From sequence record OL960577.1: a stretch of 64,000 nucleotides of DNA. One strand, 5' to 3'. Below are positions 1 through 22,014 of the stretch, piece by piece. The position numbers and the translations under genes were made by a program. This stretch comes from Escherichia phage vB_EcoM_SA35RD. How positions within the stretch are numbered: position 1 is the stretch's first letter; the number at the start of each line of letters is the position of its first letter. Under the pieces are notes generated by a model. The model did not search any database, was not told the origin of the DNA, and saw nothing but the letters and a program-made list of their open reading frames with translations.

Positions 1-2214
1 TTATTTGGCTGCTTCCACAGCCTTCATGAATTTAACGATTTGAGCGACTTGTTCTTTAGAAAGAGTACCACGTCGTCCCATGTAGTCTGACACAATATGA
101 TAATTGGTTTCGAATTCAATAACCATTTTATCATCATTATCGTAAGCATTATCTTTAAGCTTATCGAAAATTTTAGCACACAATTCTAACTTCTTATTCA
201 GGTCTGTATTAGTAGCACCTGCGAATCGATTCCATCCCCAACGATTATTTACTGTTGAGAGTTTTGCAAAGTCTTTACTGATTTCTTTGTTCTTAGAGCT
301 AAAATACTTACTAAGGAAGTTAAGCTCTTCATTACGAGTAATATGATTCAAATAAGGCTGTGCTCTACGACTTGGTGATACATACTCATCATAATCCACT
401 TTATCGATTAGCATAATATAGTCATTAATTGATTTTTCGAACAAGCATTCTACTTCACCAAGTTTACGAACTTTCTTAGCAATCTGTGGACGGACTACAG
501 TGAACTCTTTAATACCTGACAAATCAGCAATACGGGTCAAGAAATTGGAGTCATAGTTCAACCAACCTTTATCTGCGTCAAGACATTCAGCATTAGAACG
601 ATTACGAACTATAGCATAACCTTGGATTTCATCAGCTTCACTCGCTGGAATAAAGAGATCTTCTGATACCCAAACATCGTTTTCATTCTTAAAGAACCGA
701 TGAGCACTTGGGGATTTAGGACGAGGCCCATTAGAACGAGTCTTGACTTCAATCCATGGCTTAACGATTTGTAAAAGCTCTGAAGTCTTGTACATGTTAA
801 TGTTGTCGCCATCAAAGATAACTTTAAGGCGTTCAAGAAGTTTCATTGCATCTTCGTCTGTAGGGTCAACGAATAGTACGCTTTTACCAAAACCGCGTGG
901 AACTTTACCAGTTAATTTAACCTCGTCTTTAGACATTTCAATTGAATTAAGAGCTCGCATTAATGGAACGCGTCCCTTAACGTCGTCAATAACAATTTCA
1001 ACATTTTTAATGTTAATGCCAATCAGACTGTTAATTGAAATAGTTGCCGATGAGCTACCACTTTCACGAATACGACGAAGTCGTGGGTCTGAAACGATAT
1101 CATATACAACACCAAGGTTGCACCATTCGGGCCCCATTTTAAAACGTTTGTACAACTCGGAATAAGTTAGTTGTTCTTTAGAGTATTTCAGTGATTCAAT
1201 ATTAGACCCAGCCTTTTCCATGTATTTACGAGCGGTATAACCAAGAGAATCAATTTCACGGAATACATGACGTGGGTATTTACAATCAATCCATTTCTTA
1301 GAATCTTCAGCGAACAATTTAGCATCGATTTCTGCAACACGTTTATGGATATTTGCTACTGTACGTTTATCAAATGACAATGCTTCACGAGACGGGGCTA
1401 CATCTAGTTCACCCATAGGGAATTTAATATAAGCTGTAGTGCATCGCGTCATCATCCATGTTTGTTCTTTAATAACACTTCCGATTGGATATACAATACC
1501 ACCATAAACAGCCATGATATTACCACGTTCACCCCATGGAGCTTCCTTGGCCAAATATACATCGTCAAATTCAGGGAAGTATTTAATATCTTTAACACCA
1601 CGAACTTCTGCGATATCACCTAGAGGACGCATAACATATGCAATTTCGGATGCAAACTTTTCAAAATCTTCCGGGTTAACCGGCACAACTACTTCTACAC
1701 CCGTACGGTCATCAGGGCCCATCTTATCTACAAAGGTTGGCTTAATTTGTGGACCCGTGTCATCTTGGTAGATTACATAACCACGAACTTCGCCGTTGTG
1801 ATAAGACGTAAGGTTAAACGTATCGGTATACGCTAGTGGAGCTTTAGAACCGAGTCCGAATCCACCAATGAAATCGTTACTCGATGTTTTAGTTGAAGCA
1901 AAATATGAATTATAGATTCCTGGCTCTTCGTCATTACCTCGAATGGTGAAATCACTCATACCAGGACCAAAGTCTCGAACTACAAAACGTGGGTCTAAAC
2001 GACCTGGAGCCTGAACAATAAACTTATCAGTGCAACCATTAAGAATTTGACCATCGATACAGTTTGTGATTAATTCACGTACACAAGCCAATTCTTTGTT
2101 TGTATAAAGGTCATTAGACAAAATCTTATAAACTTTGCTATTGCCTTGAATAGTAAATGCTGTGCTCTTACCGCCTGAACCAATAATCGTTTCTTTAGCC
2201 GTTTCAATAATCAT
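1..2214 (-). CDS. rIIA: rIIA membrane-associated protein (GHKL ATPase-like N-terminus)
   Basis: 737 aa ORF; size, position at genome start and T4 synteny (rIIA, rIIA.1, topoisomerase); stop codon at window nt 1-3. Confidence 0.8.
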   Translation of the reverse strand: MIIETAKETIIGSGGKSTAFTIQGNSKVYKILSNDLYTNKELACVRELITNCIDGQILNGCTDKFIVQAPGRLDPRFVVRDFGPGMSDFTIRGNDEEPGIYNSYFASTKTSSNDFIGGFGLGSKAPLAYTDTFNLTSYHNGEVRGYVIYQDDTGPQIKPTFVDKMGPDDRTGVEVVVPVNPEDFEKFASEIAYVMRPLGDIAEVRGVKDIKYFPEFDDVYLAKEAPWGERGNIMAVYGGIVYPIGSVIKEQTWMMTRCTTAYIKFPMGELDVAPSREALSFDKRTVANIHKRVAEIDAKLFAEDSKKWIDCKYPRHVFREIDSLGYTARKYMEKAGSNIESLKYSKEQLTYSELYKRFKMGPEWCNLGVVYDIVSDPRLRRIRESGSSSATISINSLIGINIKNVEIVIDDVKGRVPLMRALNSIEMSKDEVKLTGKVPRGFGKSVLFVDPTDEDAMKLLERLKVIFDGDNINMYKTSELLQIVKPWIEVKTRSNGPRPKSPSAHRFFKNENDVWVSEDLFIPASEADEIQGYAIVRNRSNAECLDADKGWLNYDSNFLTRIADLSGIKEFTVVRPQIAKKVRKLGEVECLFEKSINDYIMLIDKVDYDEYVSPSRRAQPYLNHITRNEELNFLSKYFSSKNKEISKDFAKLSTVNNRWGWNRFAGATNTDLNKKLELCAKIFDKLKDNAYDNDDKMVIEFETNYHIVSDYMGRRGTLSKEQVAQIVKFMKAVEAAK

Positions 2215-12152: not shown

Positions 12153-12761
12153 TCAGTAACTGACAATAGACAGATTCCAGATTGTATAACGTCCATCCTG
12201 AATAATAGAATCTACACGCAGTGTAGTCCCTATAGGGAGCATAAATTCACATTCGTCAGATATAAGTCTAGCATTAGACCGTCTTGTCGCTTCAGGGAAA
12301 GCTCCATTGAACTCACAAGATGGCGCAGCCAGAATCATGTTAAGCATATGTTCACGGAAGTTGAAAGCAAATGGTGCATCTTTGATGCAGAACATATTAA
12401 ATGTTCCGTAAAAATTATACGAAGCAAAGTTACGTGCTACACCGAACACTGGGCTGAAGCTCATTACTCTGTCAAATTTAATAATACTACCAATACCTTT
12501 ATCATCGAGTGTGGCCATAGTTTTCTTAGAGATTCCACGATACATTGTCTCAGGAACAGAAGACGTCCAATTTCTACGAACGATTGAACTTAACTCCTGT
12601 TGAATACAGTCTGGCTTGTTTTCCATACACTGCCATAGTACACTTTGTTCAATGTCGCTGAATTGACTATCAATTTCGTACTGCAATACATCTTGATATT
12701 CGGGGTTTTGAGCACGACGAACCATTTCTTCAATTTCACACTCGTTATACGGCATAAACAT
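12153..12761 (-). CDS. modA: ADP-ribosyltransferase ModA-like
   Basis: 202 aa; paralogous to next ORF; R (YRGIS) and S-x-S style ART motifs; T4 synteny. Confidence 0.6.
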   Translation of the reverse strand: MFMPYNECEIEEMVRRAQNPEYQDVLQYEIDSQFSDIEQSVLWQCMENKPDCIQQELSSIVRRNWTSSVPETMYRGISKKTMATLDDKGIGSIIKFDRVMSFSPVFGVARNFASYNFYGTFNMFCIKDAPFAFNFREHMLNMILAAPSCEFNGAFPEATRRSNARLISDECEFMLPIGTTLRVDSIIQDGRYTIWNLSIVSY

Positions 12762-12789: not shown

Positions 12790-12819
12790 ATAGTATCATC
12801 GTAGGTAGAGTTTGTAAAC
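12790..12819 (-). promoter_or_regulatory. T4-type early promoter-like element upstream of modA
   Basis: GTTTAC-18nt-TACTAT. Confidence 0.4.
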
Positions 12820-13400
12820 TAAAAATTCAACATCTTTAAGTGAATGATTTTGTATACTCGAGACAAAGGGTCATACTCTAACTCTTCGATTTCCACAATC
12901 TCAAATCTAGAGATACCTGAAACCATGTACTCTTGTTCAGATTCAATCATATCTAGGACGTCAACACGTGTTTCTTCCATAACATGCTTAGGGTTCTTTC
13001 CGGCGAGTACAATGTTAACCATGTTTTGGTAGTAATCAAAAATGAATGGAGCATTCCTGAGACTAAGAATAGTGTACGTCTGATATTCCCAACTCCCAGA
13101 GAATTGACGAGCTGTGCTGAAATCAGTTGTGAACGATGTTACTCGTCCAGGAGACCAATGGCATCCAACAGAAAGAAGGGAAAGACGTTCTACTTCTTCT
13201 GGAGTTACACCACGGTAGAGTTCTACTGGTACTGTAGAAGTCATATGCTTACGAACAAGATGGTCTAATTCATAGTGGAAATCCGGGTCTTCCTTAGAAT
13301 CGGTGCAAGCCCAGAGAATGTTTTGTTCTTGGCGGGTGAATTTGCTATCAATCAGATTTGTTAGGTATTCGCGTTCTTGAAGTTCAGATTGACATGTCAT
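12819..13400 (-). CDS. modB: ADP-ribosyltransferase ModB-like
   Basis: 193 aa; paralog of ModA-like ORF (YRGVT, FTTDFSTARQF); synteny. Confidence 0.6.
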   Translation of the reverse strand: MTCQSELQEREYLTNLIDSKFTRQEQNILWACTDSKEDPDFHYELDHLVRKHMTSTVPVELYRGVTPEEVERLSLLSVGCHWSPGRVTSFTTDFSTARQFSGSWEYQTYTILSLRNAPFIFDYYQNMVNIVLAGKNPKHVMEETRVDVLDMIESEQEYMVSGISRFEIVEIEELEYDPLSRVYKIIHLKMLNF

Positions 13401-17793: not shown

Positions 17794-18453
17794 TTAACCT
17801 CGATTCATAAATGCATTAAATATTTGGTCATCAACAGAAATTTCTAATTCGACTTCAATTGTTTCAGCCTTTTCTTCAGGTGGTAATTCGTATCCACACA
17901 CTACAATTTTTTCATCGATATCAAAATATACAGAAGCAATACGATTAATGTTACTTTCAGTTAAGTCTAAATCAACATCAACATCTTTTTGACCTACACT
18001 TAAAGGATAACTAATACGAGTTATTTTATTATCTTTAACAAAGAGTCCACCAACATACTCTGTACTACGTTTGAAGTTTACACGTTTCCGAATTGAAAGA
18101 TATGATACATCTTTACCGTGAGCTCGGCTCATAGGACATAATGAATAACTAGAATAAGAGATGTCAAATCCTACGCCTTCAACATGTGCTAGAGTATCAT
18201 GAGTAAACCAATTATAGTCGTATGCTAAATCCATTATATTGTAATATGTGAAAGGCACAGGATTAACATCATATGTTGTACCTTTAAAATCTGCCCAGGC
18301 AACGATTTCGTTATCTTTAACAATTACAAAAATTACACCAATATGGTACCCGTTATTATTTTCATTCGGCGTTATATTATAACATTGTGCATTAGGAAAT
18401 TTACCATATTTAAACGGCGCGTTTTTGTGCATATAATAAATCATATTATTCAC
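17794..18453 (-). CDS. hypothetical protein (61.2 position)
   Basis: 219 aa ORF. Confidence 0.5.
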   Translation of the reverse strand: MNNMIYYMHKNAPFKYGKFPNAQCYNITPNENNNGYHIGVIFVIVKDNEIVAWADFKGTTYDVNPVPFTYYNIMDLAYDYNWFTHDTLAHVEGVGFDISYSSYSLCPMSRAHGKDVSYLSIRKRVNFKRSTEYVGGLFVKDNKITRISYPLSVGQKDVDVDLDLTESNINRIASVYFDIDEKIVVCGYELPPEEKAETIEVELEISVDDQIFNAFMNRG

Positions 18454-19079: not shown

Positions 19080-19109
19080 ATAGTATCTTGGTTTAACTTT
19101 AGTGTAAAC
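19080..19109 (-). promoter_or_regulatory. T4-type early promoter-like element
   Basis: GTTTAC-18nt-TACTAT. Confidence 0.4.
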
Positions 19110-19112
19110 CAA

Positions 19113-19481
19113 TTAATTAAATTTGTTTAAACGTTCAATACACTGGACGTAGTTATTTGCGATTTGTTTCTGGGTAGGCTCTTTACCAGTTGTTTCAACA
19201 TAGCGAATGAATGCGATTTCAGTAGCCTGTAAGCAATGTTCTTTAACGCGCTGTTCTTTTGACATAGCTACAGTATCAGAATCACGATAACGTTGAGCAT
19301 GAGCATCAGCTTGAATCATTCGATTACCTACAGTAACCGGGTCTTCCACTTCAACTTTAGGTTGTTCATATTGTTTAACATTCGGATTGTAAATCAGTTG
19401 GCCAACATTATTAGGAATAAAGCCATGGGCACCACATCCGGTTAATCCAAATACCATTGCTAAAGCGATTAATTTTTTCAT
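19113..19481 (-). CDS. putative lipoprotein
   Basis: 122 aa, lipobox LTGC after signal peptide. Confidence 0.5.
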   Translation of the reverse strand: MKKLIALAMVFGLTGCGAHGFIPNNVGQLIYNPNVKQYEQPKVEVEDPVTVGNRMIQADAHAQRYRDSDTVAMSKEQRVKEHCLQATEIAFIRYVETTGKEPTQKQIANNYVQCIERLNKFN

Positions 19482-19509
19482 TTCAATTTCCTCTGTAGTT
19501 GATAGAAAG

Positions 19510-19539
19510 ATAGTAACACAGTATGTGGTGCTTGTAAAC
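19510..19539 (-). promoter_or_regulatory. T4-type early promoter-like element
   Basis: GTTTAC-18nt-TACTAT. Confidence 0.4.
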
Positions 19540-19550
19540 AGTTTTTAAAA

Positions 19551-19739
19551 TTATCGAAAATCTGATTCGAAAACTTTCTCGTCATTAACAAATGCTTTAA
19601 CTAATGCGTTGTTCACTTCAGCAAGTTGTACCACAACCCACTCGATTTCTTCGCGATCACCTGATAACATGATATCTTTAGTGAACATCTCACCGCTTTT
19701 AAACCAACCGATAAAAGTAACTTTAGTTAATTTGCTCAT
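19551..19739 (-). CDS. dmd: Dmd-like antitoxin (discriminator of mRNA degradation)
   Basis: Start at MSKLTKVTFIGWFKSGEMFTKDI after GAGGAA SD; size (~62 aa) and position before gene 41 as T4 dmd. Confidence 0.5.
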   Translation of the reverse strand: MSKLTKVTFIGWFKSGEMFTKDIMLSGDREEIEWVVVQLAEVNNALVKAFVNDEKVFESDFR

Positions 19740-20053
19740 ATTTCCTCGCAAAATGCCCATTCAGCGTGATAAACTGTAGCGCCTTTAGTATCATTCATTT
19801 GAACTACATCTACCGGAGAAATTACTCGATAGAGACGTGGTTCACCTCCATAAGAGCGTGCTGCTCGTCCTGCATAAATCTTTGCTAAACCAATATCTTC
19901 AGTAAAGAATACACGATCCAAGTTTTTCTTACGTCCAGTTTCAGACAGAACTCCTGTTTCTTCAGGAGGACAAAGCATGTTTTCGATGTTAGCTGAACTA
20001 CTTGAACCGTGATAAAAAATCTTAAATTCTGCTTTACAATCGATGGTTTTCAT
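19736..20053 (-). CDS. small Arr/Tpt1-like protein (possible ADP-ribosyltransferase fold)
   Basis: 105 aa; FYHGSSS...VFFTED...YAG...YRVISPV pattern resembles Arr family; weak, by eye. Confidence 0.35.
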   Translation of the reverse strand: MKTIDCKAEFKIFYHGSSSSANIENMLCPPEETGVLSETGRKKNLDRVFFTEDIGLAKIYAGRAARSYGGEPRLYRVISPVDVVQMNDTKGATVYHAEWAFCEEI

Positions 20054-20079
20054 TTTGTTCTCCAGTAGTTGATAGGTCT

Positions 20080-20109
20080 ATAATAACACAACTACTGGAG
20101 AAGTAAACT
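20080..20109 (-). promoter_or_regulatory. T4-type early promoter-like element with RBS-pairing spacer
   Basis: GTTTAC-18nt-TATTAT-AGACCTATC; spacer AACTACTGGAG complementary to SD region CTCCAGTAGTT. Confidence 0.45.
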
Positions 20110-20483
20110 TAAAAACGTAATTTAGATACATCTGCGTTGATTTCGTTTTGGTTTGCGTCGTATGCAATTAAACGAACCGCTTTAGATGGGTCATTCAATG
20201 CATAGAAATGATGGAACATTGCTCGAACGATATCACCATTTACGAGTTCTACCTGGATAGGAGAACCTTTTTCGAGTTGGAAATGTTCATAAGCTTTGAT
20301 GGTTCGCAGATAATCAAGTTTTTGATTTCCGGCTCCAACGATTTGTACGATACGTTTGCCCATGTTTTCCATACGAGATACAATAGTTTTAGGAGCAAGA
20401 ATAACGTAGGTTGCCAGTGGAGAAACTACTTCAACAGTTGTGTTTTCGGTGATTGCAGTAAAAATTGCTTGAGACATATTCAT
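20109..20483 (-). CDS. hypothetical protein
   Basis: 124 aa ORF with upstream promoter motif. Confidence 0.45.
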   Translation of the reverse strand: MNMSQAIFTAITENTTVEVVSPLATYVILAPKTIVSRMENMGKRIVQIVGAGNQKLDYLRTIKAYEHFQLEKGSPIQVELVNGDIVRAMFHHFYALNDPSKAVRLIAYDANQNEINADVSKLRF

Positions 20484-20512: not shown

Positions 20513-20542
20513 ATCATATCATGCCTAGAGGAAGATGTAAAC
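20513..20542 (-). promoter_or_regulatory. T4-type early promoter-like element
   Basis: GTTTAC-18nt-TATGAT; spacer partially complementary to downstream SD region. Confidence 0.4.
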
Positions 20543-20571: not shown

Positions 20572-22014
20572 TTAAAATTTTAACTCATTGGCTAAGCTAT
20601 CTAGGTCAGCACGTGTTGCTTTGGCTTTACCTACGCGTTCCGTACGATTCACCTCTGCCTGACGCATCTGAGCACCTGCGTTTTCATTTACTGTGTTAGG
20701 TGTGTTCATGCCTTCTTGCTCAATCTCAATCCATTTCTGGTTACCTTTACGTACACCCATCAGGAATTTATTCCACTTATTCTTATCACCATATCGTGAT
20801 TTGATTTGTTTGATAAGTTGTTGTTCAGCTTGTGCAAGTTCTTCGGTTTCAATTACAGCCAACATGAAATCTGCCGTTGCTGGTAAACCTGCTGATTCTG
20901 CAATATCACTCATGTTCATATCCGAAGCATCCCATGCTGCACGTCCTACTTGAGCTGCAGTCCATAGAACTGTTTCAGATTCTACTGCTAATGCACGAAG
21001 TTCTTCTGCGATAGCTTTAACTAATGTGTAGCTATTTTCAGTGTAAACTCTGATACGACAAGACCCACAAATACCTAAGTAATCAACCATGATTACAGAT
21101 GGCACAAAGTTCTTCTTAAGTTTTAACTCATTAAGCAATGCACGAAATGTATTAGCATTAGCTCCACCAGTAGGATACTGTTTAACTACTAAACGTCCTA
21201 ATGTGGATTTTGAACGCCATTTTTCCATCTTGGCTTTATATTCAGCATAAGATACGTTACCGTCATCAATATCATCAAGTGATACGTCAAGCATGTTTGC
21301 ATCTATACGCTTAGCGCAAACTTCTTCAGCCATTTCCATTGAAATATAAAGAACATTATGGCCTGTTTGAAGATAATCTGCAGCAAGTGAACAAAGGCCT
21401 AAAGATTTACCAACGTTAACACCAGCCATTAAAACATTCAGTGTACCGGTTTCAGCACCACCTTTAGTGATTTTATTCAGAATGTTTAATTTGAACGGGA
21501 CCTTACGTGCTTTGTTCAGATAAGAAAGCCAGCGTGCTTCATAGTCTTCCATCCAGTCATGCCCAACATAACTATCAAACGAAATTGAAAGTGCTTGACG
21601 CATAATATCAGGAATAGCTCCTACGTCAGGCATTTTCTTGTTACGTTGTTCTGGAGGTAGTTCAGCATTAGACTGAATCTCAATGATTTTGGATGTAGCA
21701 TTATACATCGCTTTTTGCTGGACATATTTCTCAGTTTCTTTAACCAACCATTCATGGTCTTCAGGAGTATCAGCCAATTTTTCAATTAGGTCTGAAGTTC
21801 CTTTATACTCTACTTCGGTTAAAGAACTGTTATCTAAAGCCACCTTTAACGCATTGATGGATGGCATTGCATTATATTCGTTAACGTGGTTCTTTATAAT
21901 TTTAAAGACATTTTTTGCCGGTCCACGCTCAAAGTATTCAGAATCCATATAAGGCCAGACCTTAGAAAAATAAGCCTGGTCGTATACTAGATGAGACAAA
22001 ATAATTTCTACCAC
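20572..22014 (-). CDS. 41: replicative DNA helicase gp41 (DnaB-like)
   Basis: 480 aa; Walker A GVNVGKS; T4 synteny. Confidence 0.85.
   Translation of the reverse strand: MVEIILSHLVYDQAYFSKVWPYMDSEYFERGPAKNVFKIIKNHVNEYNAMPSINALKVALDNSSLTEVEYKGTSDLIEKLADTPEDHEWLVKETEKYVQQKAMYNATSKIIEIQSNAELPPEQRNKKMPDVGAIPDIMRQALSISFDSYVGHDWMEDYEARWLSYLNKARKVPFKLNILNKITKGGAETGTLNVLMAGVNVGKSLGLCSLAADYLQTGHNVLYISMEMAEEVCAKRIDANMLDVSLDDIDDGNVSYAEYKAKMEKWRSKSTLGRLVVKQYPTGGANANTFRALLNELKLKKNFVPSVIMVDYLGICGSCRIRVYTENSYTLVKAIAEELRALAVESETVLWTAAQVGRAAWDASDMNMSDIAESAGLPATADFMLAVIETEELAQAEQQLIKQIKSRYGDKNKWNKFLMGVRKGNQKWIEIEQEGMNTPNTVNENAGAQMRQAEVNRTERVGKAKATRADLDSLANELKF

Follow-up and report, generated by a model that had tools for sequence, protein, structure and literature searches.

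The DNA analysed here, hereafter the window, is a stretch of 64,000 nucleotides from Escherichia phage vB_EcoM_SA35RD (sequence record OL960577.1), a Mosigvirus, i.e., an RB69-like T-even phage. On its minus strand, directly upstream of the gene dmd, lies an open reading frame (ORF) of 105 amino acids (aa), for which an initial annotation had proposed a compact fold like that of Arr-type ADP-ribosyltransferases or of the 2'-phosphotransferase Tpt1. In this text, ART denotes this ORF (positions 19736-20053) and its homologues. The ORF would encode a stand-alone, minimal protein with an ADP-ribosyltransferase fold of the H-Y-[EDQ] clade, and the N-terminal two thirds of this protein, which are predicted to bind nicotinamide adenine dinucleotide (NAD+), would be common with Arr. 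We consider it probable that ART is an early effector which mono-ADP-ribosylates a conserved target in an NAD-dependent way, and that it belongs to an island of counter-defence genes.

Fold, sequence relationships and active site of ART

The sequence patterns on which the initial annotation was based are all present in the ORF, namely FYHGS (residues 13-17), VFFTED (48-53), YAG (60-62) and YRVISPV (75-81), and PHROG 2110, a family of 'unknown function', matches the ORF over its full length (E 3e-60). The AlphaFold2 model of ART, which was built on an alignment, has a mean predicted local distance difference test score of 84.4 and a predicted TM score of 0.78. Its elements follow each other as a strand, a long loop, a second strand, a helix and then four strands, and the model reproduces the split beta-sheet of the ADP-ribosyltransferase fold. 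A Foldseek search of BFVD, a collection of predicted viral structures, returned a 94-aa phage protein labelled 'Ms Rifampin ADP-ribosyl transferase' (E 7.8e-8, TM 0.72-0.79). Structure prediction and Foldseek, with which the initial annotation had suggested that its proposal be checked, hence make it very likely that the 105-aa protein has an ADP-ribosyltransferase fold. Of the proposed Arr/Tpt1-like fold, this fold and the homology to the core of Arr are supported, but the protein is a member of neither Arr nor Tpt1 proper. The same annotation had pointed to ModA/ModB-like ADP-ribosyltransferases elsewhere in the phage, and these are indeed encoded by two minus-strand ORFs of the window (12153-12761 and 12819-13400) that match PHROG 832, 'RNA polymerase ADP-ribosylase' (E 1e-37 and 3e-38, respectively). 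ART does not, however, add a third NAD-utilising fold to them, as ModA and ModB belong to the same superfamily and differ from ART in clade (R-S-E versus H-Y-[EDQ]). The definition of these clades, and of the H-H-h clade, follows Iyer et al. (PMC9503650).

The relation of ART to Arr was studied with three alignments: a narrow one of T4-like homologues, a wider family profile of 42 members that includes the window ORF, and one of bona fide Arr proteins. When the wider profile was compared with the Arr alignment by hhalign, the two matched with a probability of 94.3% (E 9.8e-8) over residues 7-84 of the window ORF. An hmmsearch of the PDB sequences with the wider profile gave Arr-ms (2hw2/9iaf, E 0.0018) and Arr-2 (E 0.05), and no other family with E < 1; neither phmmer with the ORF nor hmmsearch with the narrow profile matched a PDB sequence. 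The Pfam family Arr-ms (PF12120) is touched by 25 of the 42 members of the wider profile, and its cut-off of 25 bits is passed, in the matching region, by the relatives P0127 (26.9 bits), P0132 (27.5) and P0149 (29.4), in each of which the domain is part of a very large protein. With the NCBIfam equivalog rifampin_ARR (NF033144), on the other hand, relatives reach 26 bits against a cut-off of 130, over positions 2-70 of 131 only, and the window ORF remains below the curated score of the Arr family.

Comparison with Arr (PDB 2hw2, 9iaf and 9iba) shows where the likeness lies. Both are small single-domain proteins, and they have a homologous N-terminal core that runs from strand 1 through the D-loop, strand 2 and the helix to strand 3, in which Y-H-G-[ST], E-x-G-R, [YF]-x-T and A57 are shared positions. 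They differ in length (105 aa for ART versus about 140 aa for Arr), and past residue 84 only 21 residues follow in ART versus about 60 in Arr. As judged from the sequence, ART is not an Arr orthologue, because the C-terminal half does not align and the alignment is confined to the N-terminal, NAD-binding part (residues 7-84). Another difference is that ART would be an early phage gene instead of one for resistance, and nothing leads us to expect that rifamycin is its substrate.

Arr requires H19, Y49 and D84 for its activity. In the alignment, H15-G16 of ART corresponds to H19-G20 of Arr, F49 to Y49, T51 to T51 and A57 to A57, and E38-x-G-R41 aligns with the E-x-G-R of the Arr loop, which workers on Arr have equated with the D-loop found in human ADP-ribosyltransferases. 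The strand-1 His is present throughout: H15 and G16 are invariant in the narrow alignment, in the wider profile and in all 142 aligned relatives. Invariant in the wider profile, and nearly so across 151 relatives, are H15, G16, E38, R41, F49, T51, Y60, G69 and G70, and both the His and the aromatic residue of the NAD site are therefore conserved. The complete H19-Y49-D84 triad and the half of Arr that follows D84 were not found in ART, which keeps the His and has Phe in the position of the Tyr. Y60, which is invariant, follows F49 at a distance of 11 residues, the spacing of the two Tyr residues in diphtheria toxin and PARP1. By spacing, D82 is the natural candidate for the acidic residue, since it lies 33 residues after F49, versus 35 in Arr. 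We also considered E103, which is invariant in the narrow alignment, as the catalytic Glu of an H-Y-E triad, but dropped it: it is aligned in only 31 of the 151 relatives, most of the wider matches end before it, and several of the listed relatives that reach it have V or I at this position.

Conservation of ART and its link to dmd

A tblastn search of the GenBank phage collection found ART in 608 phage records, whose names refer to Escherichia (214), Klebsiella (116), Acinetobacter (68), Aeromonas (62), Enterobacter (29), Shigella (17), Cronobacter (14), Vibrio (14) and other hosts. A profile of the T4-like homologues retrieved 222 relatives from 1.84 billion cluster representatives; many of these are stand-alone proteins of about 100-150 aa, and others are single domains in proteins of up to 3,924 aa. 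For distant stand-alone relatives, the available contigs proved too short for their gene context to be informative. In bacterial genomes, each of 185,579 species being represented by one, there were six ART loci. Three of them seem to be genomes of T4-like phages that were filed under bacteria, and two are stand-alone copies in genomes of the candidate phyla radiation. The family is thus essentially confined to phages and mobile elements, and nearly absent from bacterial chromosomes.

The three phage-like loci (L080; L081, on a 178 kb contig of Flagellimonas marina; and L082, in a 167 kb bin named 'bacterium') carry ART at 64-71% identity. They look like phage genomes that were binned or assembled together with bacterial ones, and two of them are as large as the genome of a T4-like phage. 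The two stand-alone copies (L083, 3902-4348, and L084, 3923-4354) are homologues of 143-148 aa with about 50% identity, from a Candidatus Kaiserbacteria and a Patescibacteria genome. The one in L083 adjoins a 347-aa ORF that, by the look of its sequence, is a putative integrase or transposase.

In the databases, ART is annotated as 'hypothetical' almost everywhere, sometimes with a truncated start, and a few records already label homologues 'ADP-ribosyl transferase'. For phage Bas46 (MZ501056.1; L001, 3737-4054), GenBank gives a protein of 80 aa that starts at Met26. Such a start would remove His15, the predicted catalytic His. The full 105-aa frame is intact in this phage, with a single change (D88V), and the annotated start is therefore probably wrong.

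ART is strongly conserved. The alignment of 42 diverse homologues has 25 invariant columns and a mean column identity of 68%, and in the same phage pairs ART is conserved more strongly than the essential replicative helicase gp41, with identities of 89.5% versus 68%, 74% versus 58%, and 70.5% versus 51%. Some homologues start at 'MxFYHG', so that the conserved core comprises about 95 residues, and ART is predicted to be among the smallest ADP-ribosyltransferases seen.

The gene downstream of ART in the window is a genuine dmd (Table 1). The encoded protein is 95% identical to Dmd of RB69 and 54% identical to Dmd of T4, and 22 columns are invariant between it and the Dmd sequences of T4 and RB69. 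The Pfam match starts at residue 11 of a 69-aa ORF; the true start is therefore ATG 19739-19737, which gives a protein of 62 aa. Dmd is an antitoxin-like inhibitor of the host RNases RnlA and LsoA (PMC9391042; bioRxiv 10.1101/2025.11.20.689424). The initial annotation had described the ART ORF as translationally coupled to dmd through overlapping stop and start codons. The overlap is real, the TGA of ART (19738-19736) and the ATG of dmd forming an ATGA, but this arrangement is not specific to dmd, as the ART stop likewise overlaps unrelated downstream genes in other phages. The coupling to dmd is limited to Mosigvirus and a few related groups, and for that reason it says little about function.

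Co-occurrence with dmd in related phages, which had been suggested as a check, turned out to be the exception. Among 62 related loci in IMG/VR, dmd is located downstream of ART in 10, always directly (gap 0 or -4). These 10 loci are the closest relatives, with ART identities from 82% upward, and belong to the Mosigvirus and Dhakavirus-like groups. The other 52 have no detectable Dmd within 3 kb, and in these loci ART is followed by unrelated genes, whose products are Cys-rich acidic peptides (41-46 aa), lipoproteins or hydrophobic proteins (55-60 aa), or by larger ORFs. Many of these genes overlap the stop of ART through an ATGA as well. Viewed from the other side, Dmd was found in 797 GenBank phage records, almost all of them of Escherichia, Shigella, Yersinia and Salmonella phages. 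Among these records, about 566 represent the T4 type, with less than 60% identity to the query; this type lacks ART. In T4 itself, dmd follows gene 41 after 58 bp. At least 303 ART records are named after Klebsiella, Acinetobacter, Aeromonas, Enterobacter, Cronobacter or Vibrio; none of these names is among the top ten of the Dmd search, in which the smallest listed count is 2. The genus distributions of ART and Dmd (608 and 797 records, respectively) overlap only in the Escherichia/Shigella phage groups. The distributions of ART and dmd are largely independent, and therefore weigh against the idea that the two proteins form a toxin-antitoxin pair.

In several Enterobacter- and Pectobacterium-type phages (loci L011 and L016-L018), the position of dmd is taken by an acidic peptide of 41-46 aa with two CxxC pairs, which resembles a zinc ribbon. 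Klebsiella-type phages have a hydrophobic protein of 55-58 aa at this position.

Possible functions of ART

We favour an early effector because of the polyvalent-type proteins in which the domain is also found, the island in which the gene is located, and the precedent of AcrIF11. The ART domain is embedded in very large proteins in the relatives P0166, P0163, P0139 and P0149. The proteins that host it include two of 1,955 and 3,735 aa that also contain ART-PolyVal, the former together with NUDIX, a lambda-type portal fused to a 2H/Acb1-like phosphoesterase (P0166), and the end of a PcfJ-like protein. Polyvalent and head-associated proteins have been proposed to be effectors that are delivered with the DNA to subdue the host (Iyer et al., PMC5512222). 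The stretch between genes 41 and 61 of T-even phages contains dmd, directed against RnlA/LsoA, tifA, directed against ToxN, adfA (61.2), directed against DarT, and the exclusion genes imm and sp. The adjacency of ART to dmd would reflect that both are members of this island (dmd, tifA, imm.1, imm, sp, adfA/61.2), and not a dedicated toxin-antitoxin partnership. AcrIF11 is an example of a miniature ADP-ribosyltransferase that functions as a counter-defence enzyme. This phage anti-CRISPR mono-ADP-ribosyltransferase (PDB 6kyf) has no detectable sequence homology with ART, and ART has no link to CRISPR. The ADP-ribosyltransferases Alt, ModA and ModB of T4 are also phage-encoded and are used in host take-over, and genes for ModA/ModB-like proteins lie in the same window; they belong, however, to the R-S-E clade, have about 200 aa or more and are encoded in another part of the genome, whereas ART is of the H-Y type and half their size. 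In the scenario that we envisage, ART and dmd would form a transcription unit of two genes, the probable promoter being the early-type one just upstream of ART. With NAD+ as the donor, ART would mono-ADP-ribosylate either a phage-encoded target or one conserved among the hosts of T4-like phages, and its role would lie in host take-over or counter-defence.

Several observations weigh against this view. The window ORF alone gives no hit in Pfam (E<=1), NCBIfam or PADLOC, the hhalign comparison of the narrow alignment with Arr reaches a probability of 49% only (E 1.7e-4), and the Foldseek search of the PDB was not significant, with a best E of 0.34, KptA and toxin ADP-ribosyltransferases ranking high. 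In the active site, the strand-2 Tyr of the H-Y-[EDQ] clade is replaced by Phe (F in 140 and Y in 9 of 149 relatives), and the third catalytic residue cannot be placed, as the alignment with Arr ends at residue 84, before D84 of Arr. The position of D82 is occupied by D or E in only 69 out of about 130 relatives, and it is not among the columns of the narrow alignment that are conserved at 90%. The protein is slightly acidic overall, as judged from its residue count, a property that does not point to nucleic-acid binding. The consensus scan for early promoters found 7 sites, which is not above chance (5.0 +/- 2.5 expected from shuffling); the promoter upstream of ART is therefore put forward for its position and its resemblance to the T4 early consensus (PMC1524935). 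Divergent Dmd proteins may escape tblastn and hidden Markov model searches, in which case the co-occurrence of ART and Dmd would be understated. Finally, we found in the literature no experimental study on ART, RB69 ORF040c or a Mosigvirus ART, and the enzymatic activity is a predicted one.

The pair of ART and Dmd found here is very probably the one described by Iyer et al. 2022 (Viruses 14:1977, PMC9503650) as 'p0068-family ART plus Dmd', which we matched by description. In both cases, an ADP-ribosyltransferase of the H-Y-[EDQ] clade is encoded immediately upstream of dmd in Escherichia/Shigella phages, and p0068 is among the most frequent viral families of this kind. For phages of Escherichia, Shigella and Salmonella, these authors interpreted the pair as a type II toxin-antitoxin system carried by the phage, in which ART would be the toxin, perhaps acting on RNA, and Dmd would neutralise it besides RnlA/LsoA. 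The ATGA overlap and a putative promoter common to both genes fit this proposal, as do the retention of the pair in all 10 Mosigvirus and Dhakavirus-like loci and the pairing of Dmd with a Mod-like ADP-ribosyltransferase in some Klebsiella phages (PMC9503650). Our distribution data, however, show ART mostly without Dmd: unrelated genes, some of them for small membrane proteins, follow ART in the 52 loci that have no detectable Dmd, at least 303 ART records carry genus names outside the top ten of the Dmd search, and the approximately 566 T4-type Dmd records, as well as T4 itself, lack ART. Moreover, Dmd has an established target of its own, dmd being essential on rnlA+ hosts in T4, and a lytic phage has no obvious need to shield its host from its own effector. 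We therefore regard a toxin-antitoxin function as unlikely, although a secondary interaction between ART and Dmd may occur in phages having both.

We are also doubtful about an enzyme of the Tpt1/KptA type that would act on RNA ends, either by removing 2'-phosphates or by capping 5'- or 3'-phosphates with ADP-ribose, and that would, together with Dmd, repair RNA or shield it from host RNase toxins; we see only a small chance that this is the case. What speaks for it is that neighbouring dmd counters an endoribonuclease, that BFVD contains a 'putative RNA 2'-phosphotransferase' of phage PaBG among the matches (E 0.095), and that P0166 is a fusion of the domain with a 2H phosphoesterase-like one, which in RNA repair is partnered with KptA (PMC9503650). 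That fusion, however, is part of a polyvalent-type protein, in which domain neighbours are functionally mixed. None of the 42 family members matches the Pfam family PTS_2-RNA at E<=1, and all sequence evidence points to Arr. Tpt1 has an Arg-His-Arg-Arg tetrad. In 141 aligned relatives of ART (140 listed), the residue before the His is Y in 120, F in 14, W in 3 and L in 3, so that the listed residues do not include Arg. On strand 2, there is a Phe and not the His of the H-H-h clade, to which Tpt1 belongs. There is also no room for the N-terminal RNA-binding lobe in a protein of 105 aa, of which 75 residues were aligned to a 179-aa chain. ART lacks both the Arg that precedes the His and the RNA-binding lobe, and for this reason we rejected it as a member of Tpt1; it also lacks the H-H-h signature and a PTS_2-RNA match. 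Another improbable alternative is that ART is inactive and merely binds NAD+, signals derived from ADP-ribose, or a host ADP-ribosyltransferase toxin or defence protein, and thus serves as a sponge, decoy or stoichiometric inhibitor. The replacement of Tyr by Phe, the lack of a universally conserved acidic residue that could be assigned, the very small size of the protein, and the fact that its island neighbours Dmd, TifA and AdfA all act by binding and not by catalysis would agree with such a role. Yet distant relatives show little or no variation in the His-Gly pair, the strand-2 aromatic residue, A57, Y60 and the D-loop motif, a pattern typical of a working NAD site, and Phe could still stack on the nicotinamide or adenine ring. 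In addition, a degree of conservation that exceeds that of gp41 would be easier to understand for an enzyme than for a binder that has to keep up with fast-evolving defence proteins. Finally, sequence homology to ART could be detected in no characterised family but Arr, and ART might accordingly be an Arr-type enzyme that ADP-ribosylates small molecules, by which it would inactivate a rifamycin-like compound or another chemical inhibitor. This seems to us very improbable, as the relatives are far below the equivalog cut-off, members of the family occur essentially in phages and mobile elements only, and the C-terminal half of Arr, which possibly binds rifampin, is missing or cannot be aligned in ART.

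With respect to the published description of the pair, our analysis adds the fold and profile evidence that ties the family to the core of Arr, the finding that ART belongs neither to Arr nor to Tpt1, the minimal size of the protein and its conservation above gp41, and the observation that pairing with dmd is the exception and not the rule, which tempers the toxin-antitoxin reading. The early effector that we prefer would be of wider interest. T-even phages are the textbook case of viral ADP-ribosylation (Alt, ModA, ModB), to which ART adds a different clade, and its absence from T4 is probably the reason why ART was never studied. It is carried by RB69 and by hundreds of phages of Escherichia coli, Klebsiella, Acinetobacter and Aeromonas that are candidates for therapy. 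RB69 ORF040c, which is small, very strongly conserved and located in a counter-defence island, is a cheap and well-defined object of study; the target of ART could reveal a new step in host take-over or anti-defence, and could define the minimal catalytic unit of ADP-ribosyltransferases. A bolder view, which we hold to be rather unlikely, is that the family, with its core of about 95 residues, is the smallest of all known self-sufficient ADP-ribosyltransferases and modifies a universal target or, in a variant for phages with dmd, ADP-ribosylates the host RNase toxins that are bound by Dmd. A universal target is suggested in that view because ART is conserved above the helicase across phages of Enterobacteria, Acinetobacter, Aeromonas and Vibrio. 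If true, candidates for the target would be the ends of RNA or DNA, or a core factor of translation or transcription; in the variant, ART-dmd would be a two-pronged anti-RNase cassette.

Gene order and expression signals

The 2 kb around ART are 98% identical to those of phages AV115, mobillu and Bas46. The genes follow each other on the minus strand in the order 41, a 124-aa ORF, ART, dmd, imm.1, imm, sp and the gp61.2 homologue (Table 1). We take the last of these to be adfA, in line with the annotation of RB69, and on the same grounds we take TifA, the ToxN inhibitor, to be 61.4. The possibility that the ART ORF itself is AdfA or TifA was considered and dropped, as AdfA is gp61.2, encoded elsewhere in the window, and TifA is 61.4, which the window lacks. 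Between dmd and imm.1, where tifA would be expected, there is a spacer of 69 bp (19482-19550). RB69 has a 70-aa tifA at the position of the spacer, and in T4 tifA directly follows dmd.

Table 1. Features of the ART locus in the window and residues of the ART protein
Feature	Position	Strand	Remarks
ART ORF	19736..20053	-	105 aa; homologue of RB69 ORF040c; PHROG 2110
dmd	19551..19739	-	62 aa; Pfam PF17587 68.9 bits (cut-off 27); PHROG 2102 'Dmd' E 1e-31
gene 41 (helicase)	20572-22014	-	
124-aa ORF	20109-20483	-	between gene 41 and ART; RB69 ORF041c homologue; PHROG 10668
imm.1	19113-19481	-	followed by imm, then sp
gp61.2 homologue	17794-18453	-	
Putative early-type promoter	20080..20108	-	GTTTAC (20108-20103)-N17-TATTAT (20085-20080), TG two bases upstream of -10
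Four (G)TTTAC-N16/17-TA(T/C/G)(T/G)AT sites	19080-19108, 19510-19538, 20080-20107, 20513-20541	-	
Perfect 14-bp inverted repeat	20058..20102	-	arms 20102-20089 and 20071-20058
GAGG, putative Shine-Dalgarno sequence of dmd	19744..19747	-	in the coding end of ART; read from the sequence, GCGAGGAAATATGA
Strand 1 of ART	H15-G16-S17		
Strand 2 of ART	F49-F50-T51		
Loop of ART	29-47		P29 and P30 about 90% or more conserved; E38, R41, K43 and N44 invariant
Helix of ART and following residues	A57, Y60, R63; then G69, G70		
Candidate acidic residues of ART	D82, E103		

The consensus scan placed the putative ART promoter at 20107..20080, with 9 of 12 matches and a TG before the second hexamer. Each of the four sites of this type is intergenic and lies directly upstream of a small gene or gene pair (imm, imm.1, ART and the 124-aa ORF); the one on the imm.1 side (19538-19510) sits in the spacer between dmd and imm.1, and that of the 124-aa ORF is located at 20541-20513. 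This arrangement suggests a string of separate early transcription units across the accessory island. The scan found no early-type site between ART and dmd, which suggests that these two genes constitute one unit. The counterpart in T4 is the early unit dmd-tifA.

The putative promoter overlaps with the inverted repeat, the loop of which holds the -10 element, while the 3' arm holds the Shine-Dalgarno sequence of ART, GGAG (20063-20060). The RNA fold of the repeat has an energy of -21.5 kcal/mol (z -5.1), and none of 200 shuffled sequences folded as well. The repeat is kept in RB69 and Bas46, whose sequences are nearly identical here and hence offer no informative variation for covariation. 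Read-through transcripts would hide the Shine-Dalgarno sequence of ART in this structure, whereas transcripts from the local promoter, which would be devoid of the 5' arm, would not.

The 124-aa ORF that separates gene 41 from ART has no match in Pfam, NCBIfam or PADLOC. Its homologues are found only in the closest relatives, at 2 of the 62 loci.

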